Part shown: in pieces, positions 16-8,868 of the stretch
How positions within the stretch are numbered: position 1 is the first letter of the stretch
How the letters are laid out: every line of letters begins with the position of its first letter
NCBI GenBank assembly: GCA_964542475.1
Contig: CAZIUL010000003.1
Span: 19,826-83,825, forward strand
Direction: 5' to 3'
DNA from: an uncultured Phycisphaerales bacterium
GTDB taxonomy: Bacteria > Planctomycetota > B15-G4 > CAYZWU01
Length of the DNA stretch: 64,000 nucleotides
Made by a program: the position numbers and the translations under genes
The notes under the pieces: model-generated
Told to the model about the DNA's origin: nothing
The model's input: the letters and a program-made list of their open reading frames with translations, nothing else
Database searches by the model: none

Positions 16-1191
16 ATGAAAATACTCTGCATCTATCCCTTCCTGGACCTGGACTACAACAGCATTGCCCAGTCGATCCTTTACCTGGGCGCGCAGGGCC
101 ACGAGGTCAAGGTGATCACCGTGCGCAAAGCCGTGACCACCAAGGGCGGAATCGAGTCCGAGCCCGTGTCTGAATACCACAACGTTACCATTTACCGGCC
201 GTTCGAAAGCTTCAAGGAACAGTTCTCCGCTTCCGAAGAATGTGTGGGTAAAGCGCTCGCTTGTGTAGGTGAATTCAGGCCCGATCTTGTGTACTGCTCG
301 CTTCAGCACAACATGAAACTGGCGCGCAAGCTGTCCGCGCATTTTAAGGTACCCCTTGTGTTGCTGGTGGAGTTCGCCAGGGACCCGGCCCGGCTCCTTC
401 CATGGAAGGGGATGGGGCTCATGAAAAGGTGGGGCCTATCCTGGATCCTGACACCGGCGGCCAGGCTCTACTGGCGCAGCCTGGTCAACAGCTCCGATGC
501 GGTCATGGTAACCAACCCCGCTGACAAGCGGTTCATGGAAGAGATGGCCGGGCGCGGCAAGGACGCGACCTATGTGCCCTGGTGTACCCAGGTGCCCGAG
601 CTGGACCCGGGCAAGCGAATGCCTTGCACAGCTCTCCACGCGGGCGGTCTTATACGAATGAAAAACGCAGGAGCGCTCGCCCCTGCCATGGAAATCCTGC
701 TCAACAAAACGCCCACGGAACATTTCATTGTGGTGGGCCGCGGCAGGTACGGGAAAGCGGTGAGAGGCCTGGTAAAGCGGTACCCCGGCCGTGTAACCTA
801 TCATGAAGAACTCCCCAGGGAAAAAGTTCTGGAGCTCATAGCCGAAGCCGGCTACGCCTTTTTACCTGCAAGGGAAGGCGCTCTCGCTTTTATCGGTGAC
901 TGCTGGGGATTGAAGCTTCCCCTGGTAAGCCTTTACAACCCGGCCGGCCTGCTTGTGCCCGGCAAGGATGCGATTGTTACCAATGGAATGCGGGGTCTTG
1001 CCGATTCGGTAAACCGGCTTCTCGAGGATCCCCGCCTCGGGAACAGGATCGCTGACGCGGCCCATGAGCGTTATCTCGCCCAAAACACGGCTGAGAGTGT
1101 CGGTTCCCATTTCGAGAAGGTATACAAGCGCGTGCTCGAGAGGCGACCAAGCGGCCGCTCGGACAAAACGCTCGTTTGCAGCGCATCGTAG
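16..1191 (+). CDS. Glycosyltransferase, family 1 (GT4-like)
   Basis: 391 aa. The N-terminus (MKILCIYPF...) is Rossmann-like and the C-terminal half is typical of retaining GT-B glycosyltransferases. GC is normal for the host. Confidence 0.55.
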   Translation: MKILCIYPFLDLDYNSIAQSILYLGAQGHEVKVITVRKAVTTKGGIESEPVSEYHNVTIYRPFESFKEQFSASEECVGKALACVGEFRPDLVYCSLQHNMKLARKLSAHFKVPLVLLVEFARDPARLLPWKGMGLMKRWGLSWILTPAARLYWRSLVNSSDAVMVTNPADKRFMEEMAGRGKDATYVPWCTQVPELDPGKRMPCTALHAGGLIRMKNAGALAPAMEILLNKTPTEHFIVVGRGRYGKAVRGLVKRYPGRVTYHEELPREKVLELIAEAGYAFLPAREGALAFIGDCWGLKLPLVSLYNPAGLLVPGKDAIVTNGMRGLADSVNRLLEDPRLGNRIADAAHERYLAQNTAESVGSHFEKVYKRVLERRPSGRSDKTLVCSAS

Positions 1192-1613
1192 AAGGGGCGG
1201 TTCGCGAGCCGATCCTCTCCGTCATATCCAAATCTCCGTTTTATTGACAATCTCCATAACAATGGTATCCTCCGTGTCATGTTCAACATTGGTTTTCGGG
1301 AGTTCCAGCCACGGTTAATAGTCAGTGACACCGGCATTCACACTTTAAGATGCCCCTGGACCGGAGTTCCGAAGCCGGGCTTGGGAAAAACGGTCAAGCG
1401 GCACAACGAGTTACACGGAAGATGGTCTTTGACCAGCAGGCCCGATGCGCGATGATTCCCGTTCGTCCGGCACGGCAGGACAGCCCGACTGCCCAGGACG
1501 CCGGGCGAGGAGTGAATGGAACGACGGACAAAAAGGGCTGCAAGAAGGAGAATGTCTAGAAGAACTAGTTATGTTTCAAAAGCGATATGCGGTTTTTACA
1601 TACATAGGAATAA

Positions 1614-3110
1614 ATGATGGCTACTCACATCATTAGACTGCCAGGCGGGGAATGGGAATACGATGACACAAAACCTCTAGGGAAAGCTGGTGGATTCGGC
1701 GAAGTCTTTCTCGGCAAGGGCAAAAACGAGGCAGTTGCCGTCAAGCGCCTGAAAATTAGCGCTGATCAAGCAGCACATCGCGAATTGAAAATCGGGCAAA
1801 GTCTACTGCAACAATCATTTGATCACGTTGTGCCAGTACTAGATGCGGGACAAGATTCAGAGACAGATCGGTATTTTCTAGTAATGCCCGTTTGCGATTT
1901 CAGCCTGCAAGATAAAATTAACGAAGCAGGAGGAGCAGTTGATGGAGCAATGGCGAAATCTGCAATTGTAGAAATTATTGCAGGGCTCTCTGAAGTATCG
2001 AATATCACGCATAGAGATTTGAAGCCTGCTAATGTCTTATACCATAAAGGTGCATGGAAAATCGCAGATTTCGGAATAGCAAAGTTTGTCGAAGACTCGA
2101 CGTCATTAGAAACACTTAGGAATAGCCTAACTCCCACGTACGCGGCTCCAGAGCAGTGGAAAGGAGAACGCCCCACCACACCCACCGACGTCTACGCGCT
2201 TGGCTGCATTATTCATGCACTATTTACTGGGAGCCCACCCTTCAATGGCTCTATAGACGATATCCGGGAGGGCCACTTACATAAAGCACCCGATACACTA
2301 GCTGTATTACCCCCGCGTTTTGCAGCATTTGTTTCGCACATGTTGAGAAAGCCACCGAACGCTAGGCCAACATTAGGCCGTTGTGAAAAAGTCTTTTCAG
2401 AATTCGATATTACCTCAAGCGATTCCGATTCAACACACCTATTAATTGAAGAAGCAGCAAAACAAGTGGCTGAGAGAGAGGCCCAAGAAGAAGCACGTAA
2501 TCAAGCGGCTGCTGCTTTACGTCAAGAACGAGAAGAACTCTTTGCCGACGCGAAGGCAAATTTGCTATCCATAAAAGAGCACCTGTTTTCAAAGATCAGA
2601 GAATCATCTGAAAGCGTGAAAACCGATCATAGAGGAGATTTGCAATTTGGAGAGGCAAAACTCAACTTCATGCTGGACCCGGAATTGTTAGAGGAGTTTG
2701 TTTTAGCGAGGCATTCAAAAGGTGGAAAGCCATACAGCTATACTGGCTGGGATGTCTTAGCATGGTCAATTATTAGCGTGACTTGTGCCCGAACTTCGTA
2801 TACATGGTCTGCTTCATTATTGTTTGCTGATTTGAAAGATGATAACGGATTCAGATGGTACGAATTGTCCTTCTGGACATTAGCGCAAAATAAAAGCAAG
2901 GATGAACCATATGGTTTAGAGGGCTATATAGCCGACATTGATCTTGCATGTGGAAATATTATACATAGTGTAAATGTCGCATACGGTCCGTTACCTATAG
3001 ATGGGGAAGATGAAGAAAGTTTTATTTCGAGATGGGTTGGGTTGGTTGCCAAAGCTGCAATTGGCAATCTTAATAGACCAAGCGGAATGCCGGTGCGTGA
3101 TTTCAGGTGA
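1614..3110 (+). CDS. Hanks-type (eukaryotic-like) Ser/Thr protein kinase with an uncharacterised C-terminal domain
   Basis: 498 aa. Glycine loop LGKAGGFGEV, VAVKRLK lysine, catalytic loop HRDLKPANVL, DFGIAKF and TPTYAAPE are all intact. Residues ~290-350 are coiled-coil-like (EAQEEARNQAAAALRQEREELF). There is then a ~170-aa Trp/Tyr-rich domain with no motif I recognise. A possible RBS (aggaa) sits ~7 nt upstream. The gene lies in a lower-GC segment. Confidence 0.85.
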   Translation: MMATHIIRLPGGEWEYDDTKPLGKAGGFGEVFLGKGKNEAVAVKRLKISADQAAHRELKIGQSLLQQSFDHVVPVLDAGQDSETDRYFLVMPVCDFSLQDKINEAGGAVDGAMAKSAIVEIIAGLSEVSNITHRDLKPANVLYHKGAWKIADFGIAKFVEDSTSLETLRNSLTPTYAAPEQWKGERPTTPTDVYALGCIIHALFTGSPPFNGSIDDIREGHLHKAPDTLAVLPPRFAAFVSHMLRKPPNARPTLGRCEKVFSEFDITSSDSDSTHLLIEEAAKQVAEREAQEEARNQAAAALRQEREELFADAKANLLSIKEHLFSKIRESSESVKTDHRGDLQFGEAKLNFMLDPELLEEFVLARHSKGGKPYSYTGWDVLAWSIISVTCARTSYTWSASLLFADLKDDNGFRWYELSFWTLAQNKSKDEPYGLEGYIADIDLACGNIIHSVNVAYGPLPIDGEDEESFISRWVGLVAKAAIGNLNRPSGMPVRDFR

Positions 3111-3154
3111 AAACATAACAATGCCATAAACACGGACCGCAAAAAGCTACACTG

Positions 3155-3535
3155 ATGGGTGAAGACAGTGCAACATTTCAACTGTGGCCGGTCACAGCTA
3201 AATTGGACAAATCCCTACCGGAAACAGAAAAGATTGAGACCCTTATCGTCTCGCTCAAGCAACTTGTCGGAGCCACCTTCATCCGCAATGGACAAGAGCA
3301 CACGCTGGATGATGCAATTACACACATGAGGGAAAAATGGGAACGGAAGAAGTCGGAGATCAAAACAGCAGACGACTTCATCAGGATCGCAGGTTCGAAA
3401 TCGTCAAACAGCGGCAAACCGTATGTCCTTAAGATGCCCGATGGGACTGAGGTCGAAACAGAAGAATGGTTCAGAAGGCAACTGGAAGCAATGGAGAAAC
3501 TCCCCAACAAAGCCATCGACAGCAGCAAGAAATAG
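3155..3535 (+). CDS. Hypothetical small protein (126 aa), co-oriented between the kinase and the ATPase
   Basis: The ORF is 45 bp downstream of the kinase stop and has lower GC. It has no recognisable motif and no clear Shine-Dalgarno sequence. Confidence 0.4.
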   Translation: MGEDSATFQLWPVTAKLDKSLPETEKIETLIVSLKQLVGATFIRNGQEHTLDDAITHMREKWERKKSEIKTADDFIRIAGSKSSNSGKPYVLKMPDGTEVETEEWFRRQLEAMEKLPNKAIDSSKK

Positions 3536-3953: not shown

Positions 3954-5174
3954 ATGGCTGAGGAATTCTCAAATCCATTTCGTCCGGGAGCGGGCCACAA
4001 ACCTCCATACCTAGCAGGTCGCGCCGAGGAGACCAAGGAATTTAGGCGTTTGCTTGAACAGAAGGTGATTCTGGAGAATCTCGTCCTCACAGGGCTACGG
4101 GGTGTTGGGAAGACGGTCCTCTTGGACACGTTGAAACCTATCGCTATCCAGGAAAAATGGCGCTGGGTTGGCACCGATTTATCCGAGTCATCCAGCATCA
4201 GCGAAGAGAGAATAGTCCTTCGTCTTCTCACAGATCTGTCCGTCCTGACGGCATCATTCGTAATCGGAGAACGCGAACGATCAAATATCGGATTTGGAGC
4301 GACCCCCTCCCGAGATGAAATCAAGCTTGATTTTCAGACTCTGCAGTCAATCTATACGTCCACACCAGGCCTGCCCTCCGACAAACTCAAGCGGGTCCTG
4401 GAGGTCGTTTGGTCTGTCCTGAAGCAGACCTCTGATAGCGGGTTGATCTTCGCCTATGACGAAGCCCAGAACTTGGCGGACCACGCCGCTAAAGACAACT
4501 ACCCACTTTCCTTGCTCCTTGACGTCTTTCAATCTATTCAGAAGAAAGACATCCCATTCATGCTTATCCTGGTTGGGCTCCCACCGCTCTTCCCCAAGCT
4601 GGTGGAGGCCCGAACCTTTGCTGAGCGTATGTTCCGTGTTGTGTTCTTAGATAGCCTCAAAAAGCCGGAAAGCCGAGACGCGATACTGAAACCAATCGAG
4701 AACGCCCACTGCCCTGTCAGGCTAGATGAGCTATCCATCAAACTCATCGTAGAAGTTTCAGGTGGCTACCCTTACCTCATTCAGTTCGTCTGTCACGAGG
4801 TCTATGACACATTCGCGCAGGGACAAACCTCGGTTCCAGTTGCCGAAATTACAAGAAAACTGGACTCTGATTTCTTTGCGGGTCGCTGGGCTCGCGCAAC
4901 TGACCGCCAGCGGGAATTGATGATAGTCATCGCGCAACTGGACACCTCCGCGGCCGAGTTTACCGTCCAGGAAATCGCCGAGAAGTCCAAGCAACTGTTG
5001 GACAGGCCGTTTAGCTCGAGTCACATCAATCAGATGCTCGTGGCGCTCTCGAACTCGGGTTTGATTTACAAGAACAGGCACGGACGTTACTCCTTCGCGG
5101 TGCCGTTGCTTAACCAGTTCATCCGCCGCCAGATATCAAACGAGTACGAGACACCGCCAAACGACGGGTTGTAG
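3954..5174 (+). CDS. AAA/STAND-like ATPase (Arch_ATPase / AAA_16-like) with a C-terminal winged-helix (DUF234-like) domain
   Basis: 406 aa. The N-terminus NPFRPGAGHKPPYLAGRAEE...LL is characteristic of this ATPase family. There is a Walker A (GLRGVGKT) and a Walker B-like motif (LIFAYDEAQN). The C-terminal tail (RYSFAVPLLNQFIRRQ) is wHTH-like. Confidence 0.7.
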   Translation: MAEEFSNPFRPGAGHKPPYLAGRAEETKEFRRLLEQKVILENLVLTGLRGVGKTVLLDTLKPIAIQEKWRWVGTDLSESSSISEERIVLRLLTDLSVLTASFVIGERERSNIGFGATPSRDEIKLDFQTLQSIYTSTPGLPSDKLKRVLEVVWSVLKQTSDSGLIFAYDEAQNLADHAAKDNYPLSLLLDVFQSIQKKDIPFMLILVGLPPLFPKLVEARTFAERMFRVVFLDSLKKPESRDAILKPIENAHCPVRLDELSIKLIVEVSGGYPYLIQFVCHEVYDTFAQGQTSVPVAEITRKLDSDFFAGRWARATDRQRELMIVIAQLDTSAAEFTVQEIAEKSKQLLDRPFSSSHINQMLVALSNSGLIYKNRHGRYSFAVPLLNQFIRRQISNEYETPPNDGL

Positions 5175-5377
5175 AAACTCTTCCAGGAGGCAAGGTTTCC
5201 ACGAGTTGGCAGCCCAACAGGGATTTCAGCAAATAATCGCCTTCGCCGGAGACGGAAAGCTTAGAGACGAAAGCGATGCTGCGGCGGATCTCCTGGACGA
5301 CATTTCTTTTCTTAGCCATTTCATTGCTCCGTAATCAGGCCCAGGTCCTAATGTACGGAGTCGAGACGCGTCGTCAA

Positions 5378-5412
5378 CCTCTTAGGGAATGGTTCTATGA
5401 ATCCCTAAGAGG
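5378..5412. repeat. Perfect 11-bp inverted repeat (CCTCTTAGGGA ... TCCCTAAGAGG) with a 13-nt loop
   Basis: Read directly from the sequence. It lies at the right edge of the lower-GC island, downstream of the ATPase gene. No U-tract follows it. Confidence 0.6.
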
Positions 5413-5557
5413 CTGTCGACTCTCACTTAGCTCGAAATTATTTCGTTTCTCAAATTGGTTGACGTTGAACAGTCTGCTATAGAGGCGATCATGAAATCCG
5501 GCCACTGAAGATCTTCCCCTTTTCAAGGCGCACTGAAATACGCGTGCTAATTAAAAA

Positions 5558-5655: not shown

Positions 5656-6339
5656 ATGATGGCCGGCTGGAGCAAAAACGACATGGCGGACCTTTATCCC
5701 GTATTCATCGACCTCGAAAACAAACCCTGCCTCGTGGTGGGGGGCGGAAGGGTTGCGCTCAGAAAGATCGAGGCCCTGCTCGGGGCGGGCGCTGAAGTGA
5801 CGGTTGTTGACCCGCATCCGGACCCGGAGCTTTGTTCCATGGCCGGTGCCGGTAAGCTCGTGCTGTCGGAGCGCCCTTTTGAAAGCGGCCTTGTGTGCGG
5901 AATGTGGCTCGTCTTCTGCGCGACCGATGACAAGGAGGTGAACCGCTCCGTGTACGAGGCCTGCGAAAAGATGCGCATCCCGGCAAACGTTGCGGACGAC
6001 CCCGCGCTCTGCAGGTTCCACGTGCCTGCCAGGTACACCGAAGGCCTGCTCCAGGCGGCTGTTTCCACACGCGGAGGCAGCCCGGCGTTCAGCCGCCATC
6101 TCCGCATCGAGCTCGAAAAGCGGTTCTCCCCATGGGCCCCGCTCCTCGTGGAGTGGCTGAATGCGCTCCGGCCGCGGCTGAAAGAGATCGTGCCGGATGA
6201 TGCGAAACAGCGCGGTGAGTTCTTGAAAAAGCTCATCGAACACAACGGGAAAAAGATCGAAGCCTTTGCCCGTGAGGGTGATGTAAAATCGTTCGACAAG
6301 CTTGTCGCGGCAGAGCTTCGCAAGATAACAAAAGGCTGA
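5656..6339 (+). CDS. sirC: Precorrin-2 dehydrogenase / sirohydrochlorin ferrochelatase (siroheme synthase N-terminal-type, SirC/Met8-like)
   Basis: VVGGGRVALRKIEALLGAGAEVTVV is an NAD-binding motif that matches the CysG N-domain. The gene is 227 aa and is followed by hemC and cobA/hemD. Confidence 0.75.
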   Translation: MMAGWSKNDMADLYPVFIDLENKPCLVVGGGRVALRKIEALLGAGAEVTVVDPHPDPELCSMAGAGKLVLSERPFESGLVCGMWLVFCATDDKEVNRSVYEACEKMRIPANVADDPALCRFHVPARYTEGLLQAAVSTRGGSPAFSRHLRIELEKRFSPWAPLLVEWLNALRPRLKEIVPDDAKQRGEFLKKLIEHNGKKIEAFAREGDVKSFDKLVAAELRKITKG

Positions 6340-6395
6340 GCTTTCATGAAAGCCGGCAACAGCTCCCCGCTTTTGCGGCTTTTGAAAGGCTGTTC

Positions 6396-7334
6396 ATGCG
6401 TCCAAAGGAACAATCTGTAAGGATCGGCACGCGCGGAAGCAGGCTTGCGCTGATACAGGCGCATTCCGTGCAGTCGGCCCTGACAGCCCGCTGCCCCGGG
6501 CTTGGCACCGAAATCATGACCATCAAGAGCGAGGGGGAAAAGAAGCCGTCAACCGATCTCAGGGAGATCTCGGGGGACGGAATCTTTACAAAGGAGCTCG
6601 ACCTTGCCCTCATCGCGCGCCGCATCGACCTGGCCGTGCATTCCATGAAAGACCTCCCCACCAGCATGCACGAAGGTGTCGAGCTTGCAGCGGTTACAGG
6701 CAGGGAAGAGCCCGGGGAAGCGTTTGTATCCGATTCGTACGACAAGCTCGACGAGCTCCCAAAGGGCGCGCGTGTTGGAACAGGAAGCCCGCGCCGCAAG
6801 GCGCAGCTCCTTTTTGCGAGGCCTGATCTCGAAATCGTCTCCATGAGGGGCAACGTGGAAACCCGGCTCGACAAAATGGGGCGCGGCCAGGCTGACGCCC
6901 TGATCCTGGCGTGCGCAGGGCTGCACAGGCTCGGGCTCGAGGCAAGGATCAGGGAACGCCTTCCGATCGACGCCTTTGTGCCCCCGCCGGGCCAGGGCAC
7001 GATCGGCATAACAATGCGCTCGGGGGACGGCAAAACAGCTTCCCTTGCCTCGCTCGTGAACGACATTGAAACCGCCGCCGCAACAGCGGCTGAAAGGGCG
7101 TTCCTCGTGCGTCTCGGCGGCGGGTGCAAGACACCTATCGCGTGCCATGCCGTGTCAAAAGAAGGGCGGCTCGACGTGATCGGGTTCGTTGCTTCCCCGG
7201 ACGGCACCGCCGTGATAAAAGAAAGCGCATCCGGCCCCGCGGAAAACGGGGCTGATATCGGCGTGGCGCTCGCTCAAAAGCTCCTGTCGCTTGGCGCGGG
7301 CGCGATCCTCGCGGAGAACGAGCATGGCGGATAA
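6396..7334 (+). CDS. hemC: Porphobilinogen deaminase (hydroxymethylbilane synthase)
   Basis: VRIGTRGSRLALIQAHSV is the classic HemC N-terminal signature. The gene is 312 aa. Confidence 0.9.
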   Translation: MRPKEQSVRIGTRGSRLALIQAHSVQSALTARCPGLGTEIMTIKSEGEKKPSTDLREISGDGIFTKELDLALIARRIDLAVHSMKDLPTSMHEGVELAAVTGREEPGEAFVSDSYDKLDELPKGARVGTGSPRRKAQLLFARPDLEIVSMRGNVETRLDKMGRGQADALILACAGLHRLGLEARIRERLPIDAFVPPPGQGTIGITMRSGDGKTASLASLVNDIETAAATAAERAFLVRLGGGCKTPIACHAVSKEGRLDVIGFVASPDGTAVIKESASGPAENGADIGVALAQKLLSLGAGAILAENEHGG

Positions 7335-8868
7335 CCGTAAAAACGACCGCGAAATCGATCACAAGGTTTACCTCGTGGGCGCGGGCCCGGGCGACCCGGG
7401 GCTCATCACCGTAAAGGGGCTGGCGCTCCTGAAAAGGGCTGATGCTGTTGTGTACGATTTTCTCGCGAACAAGCAGCTCCTTGTCCACGCCCGGGAAAGC
7501 GCGGAAAAGGTGTGTGCCGGCAAAAGCGCGGGCAGGCACACCATGCCACAGGACGAGATAAACCGGCTTCTCGTCAAGCTCTGGCGCGAAGGCAAAACTG
7601 TCGTGCGCCTCAAGGGGGGCGACCCTTTCGTTTTCGGCCGGGGCGGGGAGGAGGCGCTCGCTCTTTCTGAATCGGGCGTGCCGTTCGAAGTCGTTCCCGG
7701 CATAACAGCCGGGCTCGCAGGGCTTGCTTACGCGGGGATCCCCCCGACACACCGCGGGCTCGCGGTGAGCACAACCCTTGTCACCGGCCACGAAGACCCG
7801 GCCAAGGAAGGCTCACACCTCGATCTCGAGGCCCTTGCCGCGTGCAAGGGCACGCTGGTCTTTTACATGGGTGTGCGAACCCTTCCGGCCACGGTGAAAG
7901 GGCTCGTTAAAGGAGGCCTTCCGCCCGGAACCCCTGCCGCCCTGGTGTACATGGCATCCACGCCCGAGCAGAAGGTCGTGTCATCCACCCTCGACAAAAT
8001 CGAAGCCGAATCAAAAAAAGCCGGCATCAAACCCCCGGCCCTTTTTGTTGTCGGGCGCGTTGCCGAGCTTCGGCCGCGGCTGAACTGGTTCGAGGATCTC
8101 CCGCTGTTCGGAAAACGGATAGTGATCACTCGCCCGCGCGAGCAGAGCTCGAGACAGCGGCTGTCACTGGAGAAACTCGGGGCCCATGTGGTGGATCACG
8201 CCTCGATCTCGATCCTGCCTCCCGAGGATTACTCTCCTCTCGACCGCGCGATCGATAACATAGAGGAGTATTTCTTCCTCATCTTCACCTCGCACAACGG
8301 GGTGAGGTTCTTTTTCGAGCGGCTGCGCACGCTCGGGCACGACGCGAGAAAACTCGCAAAAAACCGGATCTGCGTGATCGGGCCCGGAACCGGAAAAGCG
8401 CTCGAAAGACACGGCCTTCGCGCGGACCTGATGCCGGGCAGCTACACATCAGAAGAGCTGGTGCCCGCGATCGAACAGAAATGGAGTTGCTTGAACGGCA
8501 AAAAAGCCCTTCTTCCGCGGGCTGACATCGCGCCGGACCACATCCTGAAAAAACTCGTGAAGGCAGGGGTTTCCGCGGAATCCGTGATTGCATACCGCAC
8601 GGTCCCGGCATCGCAAGACAGCGAGGAGCTGAAAGGCATGATAAAGGCGGGCGGGATCCACGCGGCAACCTTTGCCAGCTCCTCGGCAGCCAGGAGCTTC
8701 GTGAACATGCTCGGTAAAGGCTTTCTTTCCGAATCAAAAGGAAAGATGGCTTTCGTGAGCATCGGACCTGTCACCACCAAGACCCTGAATGAGCTAGGAT
8801 TCCCGCCGGATGCCCAGGCGAGCGAACACACCATCGAGGGCCTGACCAGTGCCGTGGCAGGGTTATGA
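7324..8868 (+). CDS. cobA/hemD: Bifunctional uroporphyrinogen-III C-methyltransferase / uroporphyrinogen-III synthase (CobA-HemD fusion)
   Basis: VYLVGAGPGDPGLITVKGLALLKRADAVVYD is the CobA/SUMT signature, and the C-terminal half is HemD-like. The start at MADNRKN (7324) overlaps the hemC stop by 11 bp; the ORF-track start at 7291 is probably an over-extension. Confidence 0.85.
   Translation: MADNRKNDREIDHKVYLVGAGPGDPGLITVKGLALLKRADAVVYDFLANKQLLVHARESAEKVCAGKSAGRHTMPQDEINRLLVKLWREGKTVVRLKGGDPFVFGRGGEEALALSESGVPFEVVPGITAGLAGLAYAGIPPTHRGLAVSTTLVTGHEDPAKEGSHLDLEALAACKGTLVFYMGVRTLPATVKGLVKGGLPPGTPAALVYMASTPEQKVVSSTLDKIEAESKKAGIKPPALFVVGRVAELRPRLNWFEDLPLFGKRIVITRPREQSSRQRLSLEKLGAHVVDHASISILPPEDYSPLDRAIDNIEEYFFLIFTSHNGVRFFFERLRTLGHDARKLAKNRICVIGPGTGKALERHGLRADLMPGSYTSEELVPAIEQKWSCLNGKKALLPRADIAPDHILKKLVKAGVSAESVIAYRTVPASQDSEELKGMIKAGGIHAATFASSSAARSFVNMLGKGFLSESKGKMAFVSIGPVTTKTLNELGFPPDAQASEHTIEGLTSAVAGL

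Follow-up and report, generated by a model that had tools for sequence, protein, structure and literature searches.

The DNA considered here is a stretch of 64,000 nucleotides from an uncultured Phycisphaerales bacterium (contig CAZIUL010000003.1, positions 19,826 to 83,825 of the forward strand), and this whole stretch is referred to below as the window. Near its start lies a gene for a protein of 498 residues in which a Hanks-type Ser/Thr kinase domain is followed by a linker, a long helix and a C-terminal domain (C-domain) without a catalogued family. Ten metagenome contigs carry a protein identical to the window kinase, and public annotation of the family's copies reads 'serine/threonine-protein kinase' and nothing more. 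A first-pass annotation, made from the letters and their open reading frames (ORFs), had described the tail from nucleotide 2400, which is codon 263 of the 1614-3110 ORF, as a coiled coil followed by an unrecognized Trp/Tyr-rich domain that might sense a ligand or a phage. The parts of the gene are listed below. Conservation, segment lengths and periodicity, here and throughout, come from an alignment of 99 full-length relatives, and pLDDT is the predicted local distance difference test score of AlphaFold2 (AF2) models.

1614..3110, plus strand: the whole gene, encoding a stand-alone cytoplasmic Hanks-type Ser/Thr kinase with helix and orphan C-domain (498 aa, from the ORF list)
1665..2378, plus strand: protein kinase domain, residues 18-255 (Pfam PF00069, E 7e-37, 127.7 bits against a cut-off of 31.7)
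2010..2033, plus strand: catalytic loop HRDLKPAN, residues 133-140 (H133, R134, D135, K137, P138 and N140 each 100%)
2067..2153, plus strand: activation segment (residues 152-180, DFG through APE); T163, S164 and T167 are candidate phospho-acceptors
2379..2444, plus strand: acidic, Ser-rich linker including SSDSDSTHL, residues 256-277 (family pairwise identity 20%; pLDDT <50 at model residues 1-8)
2445..2597, plus strand: connector helix of fixed length, residues 278-328 (a single helix in AF2, pLDDT about 88-94)
2598..2798, plus strand: fast-evolving N-half of the C-domain, residues 329-395, with the beta1-beta2 hairpin, alpha1, a long loop and beta3 (recognized by loop length variation and a drop in identity)
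2799..3107, plus strand: conserved C-half of the C-domain, residues 396-498, with beta4, beta5, alpha2, beta6, the long alpha3 and a Pro-rich tail (pLDDT 94-98)
2853..2864, plus strand: signature R-W-x-E on beta5 (R414 100%, W415 99%, E417 98%)
2988..3035, plus strand: signature P-x-P-I-D-[GA]-E-D-E-x-x-F-x-x-R-W, residues 459-474, at the end of beta6, the acidic turn and the start of alpha3
3063..3092, plus strand: C-terminal tail G-x-L-x-x-P-x-x-x-P, residues 484-493 (G484 87%, L486 93%, P489 93%, P493 99%; non-helical in AF2)

The N-terminal part belongs to the Hanks-type Ser/Thr kinases (PF00069), as the curated threshold is exceeded and the set of catalytic residues is complete. This set (G27/F28/G29 of the G-loop, the VAxK Lys K44, the alphaC Glu E57, H133-R134-D135, K137, N140, D152-F153-G154 and P179-E180) is 96-100% kept among the relatives, and from its completeness the window kinase is predicted to be catalytically intact and competent. 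Within the activation segment, D152, G154, T163, P179 and E180 reach 100% conservation, T167 95% and S164 92%; by analogy with the biology of RD (Arg-Asp) kinases, T163, S164 and T167 are candidate phospho-acceptors. No transmembrane segment was found in the protein, the highest Kyte-Doolittle mean over 19 residues being 1.25. Thus, the tail is cytoplasmic, and anything sensed by the C-domain would be intracellular.

The C-domain is a real, well-folded and widespread domain that is uncatalogued in Pfam, NCBIfam, PADLOC and PDB. A model of residues 322-498, computed by AF2 from 46 diverse family sequences, has a pLDDT of 91.5 and a predicted template modelling score (pTM) of 0.87, and it places the elements of the tail in the order end of the long helix, beta1-beta2 hairpin, alpha1, long loop, beta3-beta4-beta5 meander, alpha2 (short), beta6, alpha3 (long) and an extended Pro-rich tail. 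The domain is thus modelled as a six-stranded alpha+beta fold. At E<=0.01, the window C-domain and 45 diverse relatives matched 0 families in Pfam, PADLOC and NCBIfam. A search of PHROGs returned one marginal match (E 0.0061) for 1 of the 46 C-domains; searches of all PDB sequences with a single sequence or a profile returned no meaningful match to the C-domain, and Foldseek with its model against BFVD gave a best E-value of 0.58; among predicted structures, relatives may still exist. The weak structural neighbours are generic two-layer alpha+beta sandwiches, among them RWD/Csm1, Mediator Med14, frataxin/CyaY, ferredoxin-dependent bilin reductases and a type III secretion (T3SS)-chaperone-like fold. 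Literature searches found no paper on this architecture of kinase, helix and C-domain. A folded and widespread domain with no entry in Pfam, NCBIfam or PADLOC and no PDB relative deserves a family definition of its own.

These searches agree with the first reading of the tail in several respects. The motifs quoted in it are in place, namely HRDLKPAN at residue 133, DFG at 152, APE at 178, SSDSDSTHL at 268 and EEAAKQ at 279 in the kinase, linker and helix, and LNFMLDPELL at 350, YTGWDVLAWS at 376, YTWSASLLFADL at 396 and FRWYELSFWTL at 413 in the C-domain. Residues 330-497 are indeed rich in aromatic side chains (Trp 3.6% and Tyr 4.2%, versus 1.1% and 1.9% in the kinase part). The domain had been called unrecognized and unlike PASTA, FHA, TPR, WD40 or PQQ modules, and profile libraries and solved structures likewise give it no identity; no confident match to a well-known housekeeping domain emerged from Pfam, PADLOC, NCBIfam, PHROGs or PDB. 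The absence of database matches is also the one observation that would speak for regarding the tail as a low-complexity, disordered or gene-calling artefact. That explanation has next to no probability: it is refuted by the size of the family, the AF2 model and the conserved motifs, given a pLDDT of 91.5 with a pTM of 0.87, invariant motifs in more than 1,000 cluster representatives, and the presence of the protein on 10 contigs.

The segment that joins kinase and C-domain is a helix of constant length. In an AF2 model built with 14 homologues (pLDDT 77), the helix is unbroken over about residues 271-331 and is followed by the alpha+beta domain. The connector itself comprises 51 residues, and its segments 278-309 and 309-328 measure 32 and 20 residues with standard deviations (sd) of 0.0 and 0.1; despite this constancy, pairwise identity of the connector within the family is merely 23.5%. 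A constant helix length at such low identity indicates a geometric connector rather than a flexible linker. In residues 278-308, an Ala stripe at i+4 gives way to a nearly all-charged stretch, and hydrophobic positions are almost absent from residues 295-308 across the family. The power of the heptad periodicity in residues 278-310 is 0.085 at 3.5 and 0.002 at 7.0, and the 3.5/7-residue hydrophobic periodicity of a canonical coiled coil is not seen along the helix. Since residues 278-308 have no 3.5- or 7-residue periodicity, the coiled-coil label given to this region in the first-pass annotation is not supported. Periodicity in residues 305-334 peaks at 3.6-3.8, which fits an amphipathic helix, and periodicity and AF2 together describe residues 309-331 as an amphipathic helix packed on the beta-sheet of the C-domain. 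Because they pack on the sheet, these residues are part of the globular domain, and its boundary lies nearer 309-329 than 350, where LNFMLDPELL had been taken as the start.

Across the family, pairwise identity averages 49% for the kinase, 20% for the linker, 23.5% for the helix and 30.5% for the C-domain, and the last of these values covers two very different halves. In the N-half, the segments 328-346, 346-379 and 379-396 vary in length with sd of 4.2-4.4 residues, and identity to near homologues falls from 0.69 to 0.54 to 0.28, with values of 0.76, 0.74 and 0.70 for the kinase in the same homologues. The lowest AF2 confidence within this half is a pLDDT of 66, in block 41-50. The segments across 396-493, by contrast with these variable loops, are essentially constant in length, and identity of the C-half to near homologues is 0.85 versus 0.76 for the kinase, and 0.78 versus 0.74. 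The (near-)invariant residues of the tail are R414, W415, E417, P459, D463, E465, F470, R473, W474, A481, L486, P489 and P493. In the 46-sequence alignment the R and E of R-W-x-E are invariant, and within residues 459-474 conservation amounts to 95% for P459, 100% for D463, 90% for E465, 98% for F470, 88% for R473 and 95% for W474.

The family is large. A HMMER profile search of 1.84 billion representatives returned 1,205 matches at E<=1e-3, 749 at E<=1e-10 and 273 at E<=1e-30. Among the best 150 of the 1,205, nearly all are 480-510 aa long, and their alignment starts in the last kinase subdomains and reaches the C-terminus, with the tail beginning near residue 193 of the match. The family thus comprises more than 1,000 clusters at 50% identity, from Alphaproteobacteria, Actinomycetota, Betaproteobacteria and uncultured phyla. 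An earlier view of it as rare was abandoned: a word-indexed homologue search had given 13 and then 21 matches, where HMMER gave 1,205. The 13-21 word-indexed matches are mostly broken or fragmentary genes, and a rarity inferred from them is misleading.

Every well-supported copy of the C-domain sits on this type of kinase, and fusions to other effectors, which the first-pass annotation had suggested looking for, did not materialize among them. In a single protein, P0124 (L042 281-1297), a lipoprotein-like N-terminus takes the place of the kinase ahead of the helix and C-domain; its contig is 1.7 kb long at 2.3x coverage, and P0124 may be an assembly chimera. Short proteins of 134-308 aa without a kinase were considered as stand-alone C-domains and set aside, since most of those beginning 'MLRKPP...' are the 3' parts of kinase genes that a stop or frameshift has interrupted. 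In the short protein of L009 the frame is open to the contig edge and the call began at an internal Met, and further kinase-less short matches are contig-edge fragments. Unannotated N-terminal extensions of 100-260 aa precede the kinase in P0059, P0110, P0139, P0140 and P0096, and may be additional input modules. One N-terminally extended member has a weak HAAS match (E 3.6e-4), and P0110 (754 aa) was found repeatedly in many metagenomes.

In the window, the kinase gene is foreign to its host and was horizontally acquired. It has a GC content of 0.45, and of 0.38 at third codon positions (GC3), in the midst of glycosyltransferase, sirC, hemC and cobA-hemD genes with a GC3 of 0.71-0.75. Among named proteins, the HemC of the host (window 6396-7334) comes closest to one from a Planctomycetota metagenome-assembled genome (MAG), at 60% identity, and it is about 47% identical to deltaproteobacterial proteins; from these values of at most 60% to named proteins, the host belongs to a poorly sampled uncultured lineage. 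For the kinase, identity is 68% with the copy of an unrelated MAG and 58% with that of Parvibaculum. That it is 58-68% identical to copies from Alphaproteobacteria and other MAGs, while HemC reaches at most 60%, indicates horizontal transfer.

Two genes follow the kinase gene in the same orientation:

3155-3535, plus strand: DUF5329 protein (E 4.7e-25; GC3 0.575), starting 44 nucleotides past the kinase stop
3954-5174, plus strand: AAA_16 ATPase of 406 aa (GC3 0.63), with weak nSTAND matches

The last ~70 residues of the ATPase have weak matches to retron-St85-effector, NDT and CARF-type models, and the ATPase may be an independent conflict-type gene. Both were considered as conserved partners of the kinase and rejected, as they are found at the window only and are missing from all other loci. 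An inverted repeat in the intergenic DNA past the AAA_16 gene (window 5370-5420; 19-nucleotide arms, 89% complementary, 13-nucleotide loop) lies at the right edge of the lower-GC segment. A search for island boundaries turned up neither a tRNA nor convincing direct repeats on the flanks, and the window holds no second member of the family.

The window kinase also splits a heme/siroheme cluster (hemB, hemL ... sirC, hemC and a cobA-hemD fusion; window 5656-8868 and L001 5974-8233), and an unrelated family member, P0025, lies directly downstream of a hemC-hemD-hemY operon (L043 2915-7000). A link to heme biosynthesis was rejected, since hem adjacency occurs at merely 2 of about 35 loci and is probably a coincidence.

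The loci of relatives were retrieved with a degenerate DNA motif back-translated from the 459-474 signature. It found 22 loci in species-representative genomes and 2 on IMG/VR viral contigs, all of them members of the family or remnants. Most of the 22 are in Alphaproteobacteria (Rhizobium, Mesorhizobium, Sphingomonas, Sphingobium, Hyphomicrobium, Parvibaculum and Lentibacter), and tblastn added copies on plasmids of Streptomyces, Rhodococcus and Variovorax. The plasmid copies adjoin NACHT, PIN and helicase genes, or Fic and a recombinase. An IMG/VR copy lies at the end of a prophage next to an integrase, and another copy adjoins an integrase and DUF4365. In the Hyphomicrobium locus L011, a TIR protein and a PADLOC short-pAgo/Aga_TIR-PNTD match form a SPARTA-like pair (329-3363) about 1.6 kb upstream of the family member; this island also holds an Eco57I-type restriction-modification (R-M) enzyme, DUF4062 and a CoiA nuclease. 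Other copies are single-gene insertions in core-gene settings, at nusA-infB, at EPSP synthase/hisD and at hemC-hemD-hemY. No neighbour gene is conserved across the approximately 35 loci.

Plasmid and prophage/integrase-junction locations would fit a weapon of selfish elements, a toxin with which plasmids or prophages would enforce addiction, exclude superinfection or compete with other mobile elements, and whose C-domain would recognize a protein of a rival element; kinases are toxic in the KKP module (PMC11341870). No adjacent phosphatase or antitoxin-like gene is conserved, though, and many copies are chromosomal single-gene insertions without a recognizable element around them; this explanation is unlikely.

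About 17 of the 21 evaluable copies in species-representative genomes, the sample with less bias, are intact and about 4 are defective. The lesions seen across the loci are varied: an in-frame TAA in place of Glu in L004, L005 and L006 (L004 1948-1950), a stop within APE*W in L010, a frameshift at ~420-450 in L007, an upstream stop at 28-30 in L003, a frameshift inside the C-domain of the Hyphomicrobium copy (L011 and L012; L011 ~6000-6050) and internal stops in L014 (4660-6174). In addition, L017 and L025 are remnants and L034 is a truncated, interrupted copy. In broken kinase homologues the C-terminal ORF is often still intact. Programmed recoding at the in-frame TAA of L004 was considered and rejected, because the type and position of the lesion differ by lineage; this variety points to repeated loss instead. 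Recurrent and independent inactivation of this kind hints at rapid turnover of the gene or at a price for carrying it, and conflict genes that are costly or toxic would be expected to turn over in this way.

The fraction of intact copies is also what a signalling kinase outside defence would lead one to expect, one whose C-domain serves docking, dimerization or localization in stress, development or metabolism and which has spread by horizontal transfer. Such a kinase would suit the housekeeping settings of several copies (nusA-infB, EPSP synthase/hisD, hemC-hemD-hemY), the two independent loci next to heme-biosynthesis operons, and the position of PknB and StkP as the nearest solved kinase domains. 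Set against these points, the roughly 35 loci have no partner, substrate gene or operon in common, and heme adjacency is confined to 2 of them. The strongly foreign composition, the plasmid, prophage and integrase-adjacent copies and the frequent pseudogenization also disagree with it, and a fast-evolving recognition half is unusual for a housekeeping docking domain. A role of this kind, the main rival of the reading preferred below, is possible though rather doubtful.

What is established is a tripartite module, made of an intact kinase, a helix of fixed length and an orphan domain that is half conserved and half diversifying, on a mobile gene without partners. The tail probably controls the kinase, and perhaps it is an intracellular phage sensor. 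By analogy with known defence kinases, the reading tentatively preferred, with a confidence that stays somewhat below the halfway mark, is that the tail is a cytoplasmic sensor or regulator of a single-gene, probably antiphage, kinase. The sensing role put forward in the first-pass annotation is in this way carried forward in part: the lack of a transmembrane segment, the fast-evolving N-half with variable loops, and a horizontally acquired, patchy gene in mobile or defence-adjacent contexts (SPARTA-like, R-M and TIR) are indirect evidence for sensing.

Sensing, the mechanism of activation and the defence outcome are proposed by analogy with Stk2 and PD-T4-6, an analogy by which the cue would most likely come from a phage. 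In the most economical mechanism, the conserved C-half (RWxE, PIDGEDExxFxxRW and the Pro-rich tail) and the helix would make up an invariant coupling unit that fixes the geometry of the kinase, and the fast-evolving N-half with its variable loops would be the recognition surface for an intracellular cue. A phage-derived protein, or a state induced by infection, would bind the variable face; binding might, as a conjecture, lift autoinhibition or drive self-association; the activation loop (T163, S164 and T167) would then be autophosphorylated, and the kinase would phosphorylate host and/or phage proteins, so that infection is aborted. A bolder form of this proposal sees in the tail a fold family without previous description, in which phage sensing and autoinhibition of the kinase reside; the single-gene antiphage kinases so controlled would be a large class that still lacks a name, and the rigid helix would be a ruler that relays trigger binding. 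In all these particulars it is rather doubtful.

Several observations weigh against an antiphage sensor. The matches to hidden Markov models (HMMs) of defence kinases span the generic kinase domain only, and the NCBIfam model PknB_PASTA_kin likewise scores 107.9 bits. A tblastn search of 50,697 phage genomes gave no family match; together with the lack of any PADLOC match for the tail, this leaves no link to a validated system. Many copies have ordinary housekeeping genes around them and lack a defence gene inside about 4.5 kb. Finally, the invariant R414, E417, D463 and E465 could equally be a structural salt-bridge network or an active site. With an active site, or a pocket for a small molecule or nucleotide, at these residues, the C-domain would itself be the effector or enzyme and the kinase would regulate it. 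The retention of four (near-)invariant charged residues in an otherwise 30%-identical domain speaks for that arrangement, as do weak structural neighbours that include ligand-binding sandwiches (bilin reductases, frataxin/CyaY and PR10-like); it is judged improbable.

Bacterial Hanks kinases act in phage defence, as in Stk2, PD-T4-6, MAD6 and KKP. To our knowledge, how any defence Hanks kinase recognizes infection is largely unexplained. Stk2 is reportedly an abortive-infection Ser/Thr kinase of Staphylococcus epidermidis, described by Depardieu and colleagues in 2016. Like Stk2, whose non-kinase regions are thought to sense a phage protein, the window protein is a single-gene cytoplasmic Hanks-type kinase, and the Stk2 model of PADLOC matches its kinase domain (E 6.5e-20). 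This match is confined to residues 18-208 and to 128-318 of the 500 model positions; the tail is dissimilar to the model, and an N-terminal extension of the Stk2 type is absent. PD-T4-6 is said to be a single-gene kinase defence of E. coli, from work by Vassallo and colleagues in 2022. Like the window protein, it is a kinase that stands alone, is roughly 450-500 aa long and has an uncharacterized C-terminal part, and many PADLOC PD-T4-6 models match the window kinase domain (best E 8e-36, up to 122 bits). However, all of these matches stop at about residue 250-260 (for example, 15-252 against 17-270 of 510 positions), and 0 of the 46 C-domains match any PADLOC model at E<=0.01, so that the tail lies outside PD-T4-6.

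The top PADLOC model for the window kinase domain is MAD6 of the methylation-associated defence system (MADS) (PDLC04138; 152.6 bits, residues 22-301 against 59-347 of 659, the kinase part only). That the domain scores best against models of defence kinases counts in favour of the antiphage reading. By the NCBIfam model antiphage_MADS6 (NF047741), in contrast, the protein is no MAD6, with 88.9 bits against a cut-off of 460; MAD6 is also longer and part of a multigene system, whereas the neighbours here are GT4, DUF5329 and AAA_16, with no MADS genes nearby. Among solved structures, the nearest relatives of the kinase domain are PknB, a staphylococcal kinase and StkP (E about 1e-20). With PknB, Stk1 and StkP the window kinase shares the RD motif and a Thr in the activation loop, but those proteins have a transmembrane helix and extracellular PASTA domains and the window protein has neither; it has no PASTA match and scores 107.9 bits against a cut-off of 450 for the NCBIfam model PknB_PASTA_kin (NF033483), outside that family.

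The KKP module combines two neighbouring kinases, whose tails are CSD and FHA, with a PP2C phosphatase, and its kinases act as toxins and are prophage-borne (PMC11341870). Like the window protein, PfkA and PfkB of Pf prophages are Hanks kinases with variable C-terminal domains, and they are toxic antiphage effectors on mobile elements (PMC11341870). Unlike KKP, the present system has one kinase, no CSD or FHA match and no conserved phosphatase neighbour, and is no member of that class. The window protein may nevertheless act as the systems compared here do. CapK/CapS (PMC13373217) was set aside from the comparison, as CapK resembles anti-sigma-factor kinases and not Hanks kinases. Beside these systems, the family described here is a compact case with a division of labour within a single polypeptide, among an invariant kinase, a connector of constant length and a split domain. 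If the diversifying half is the face that binds the trigger, the family would be a tractable model of kinase-based immune sensing and a source of natural specificity variants.

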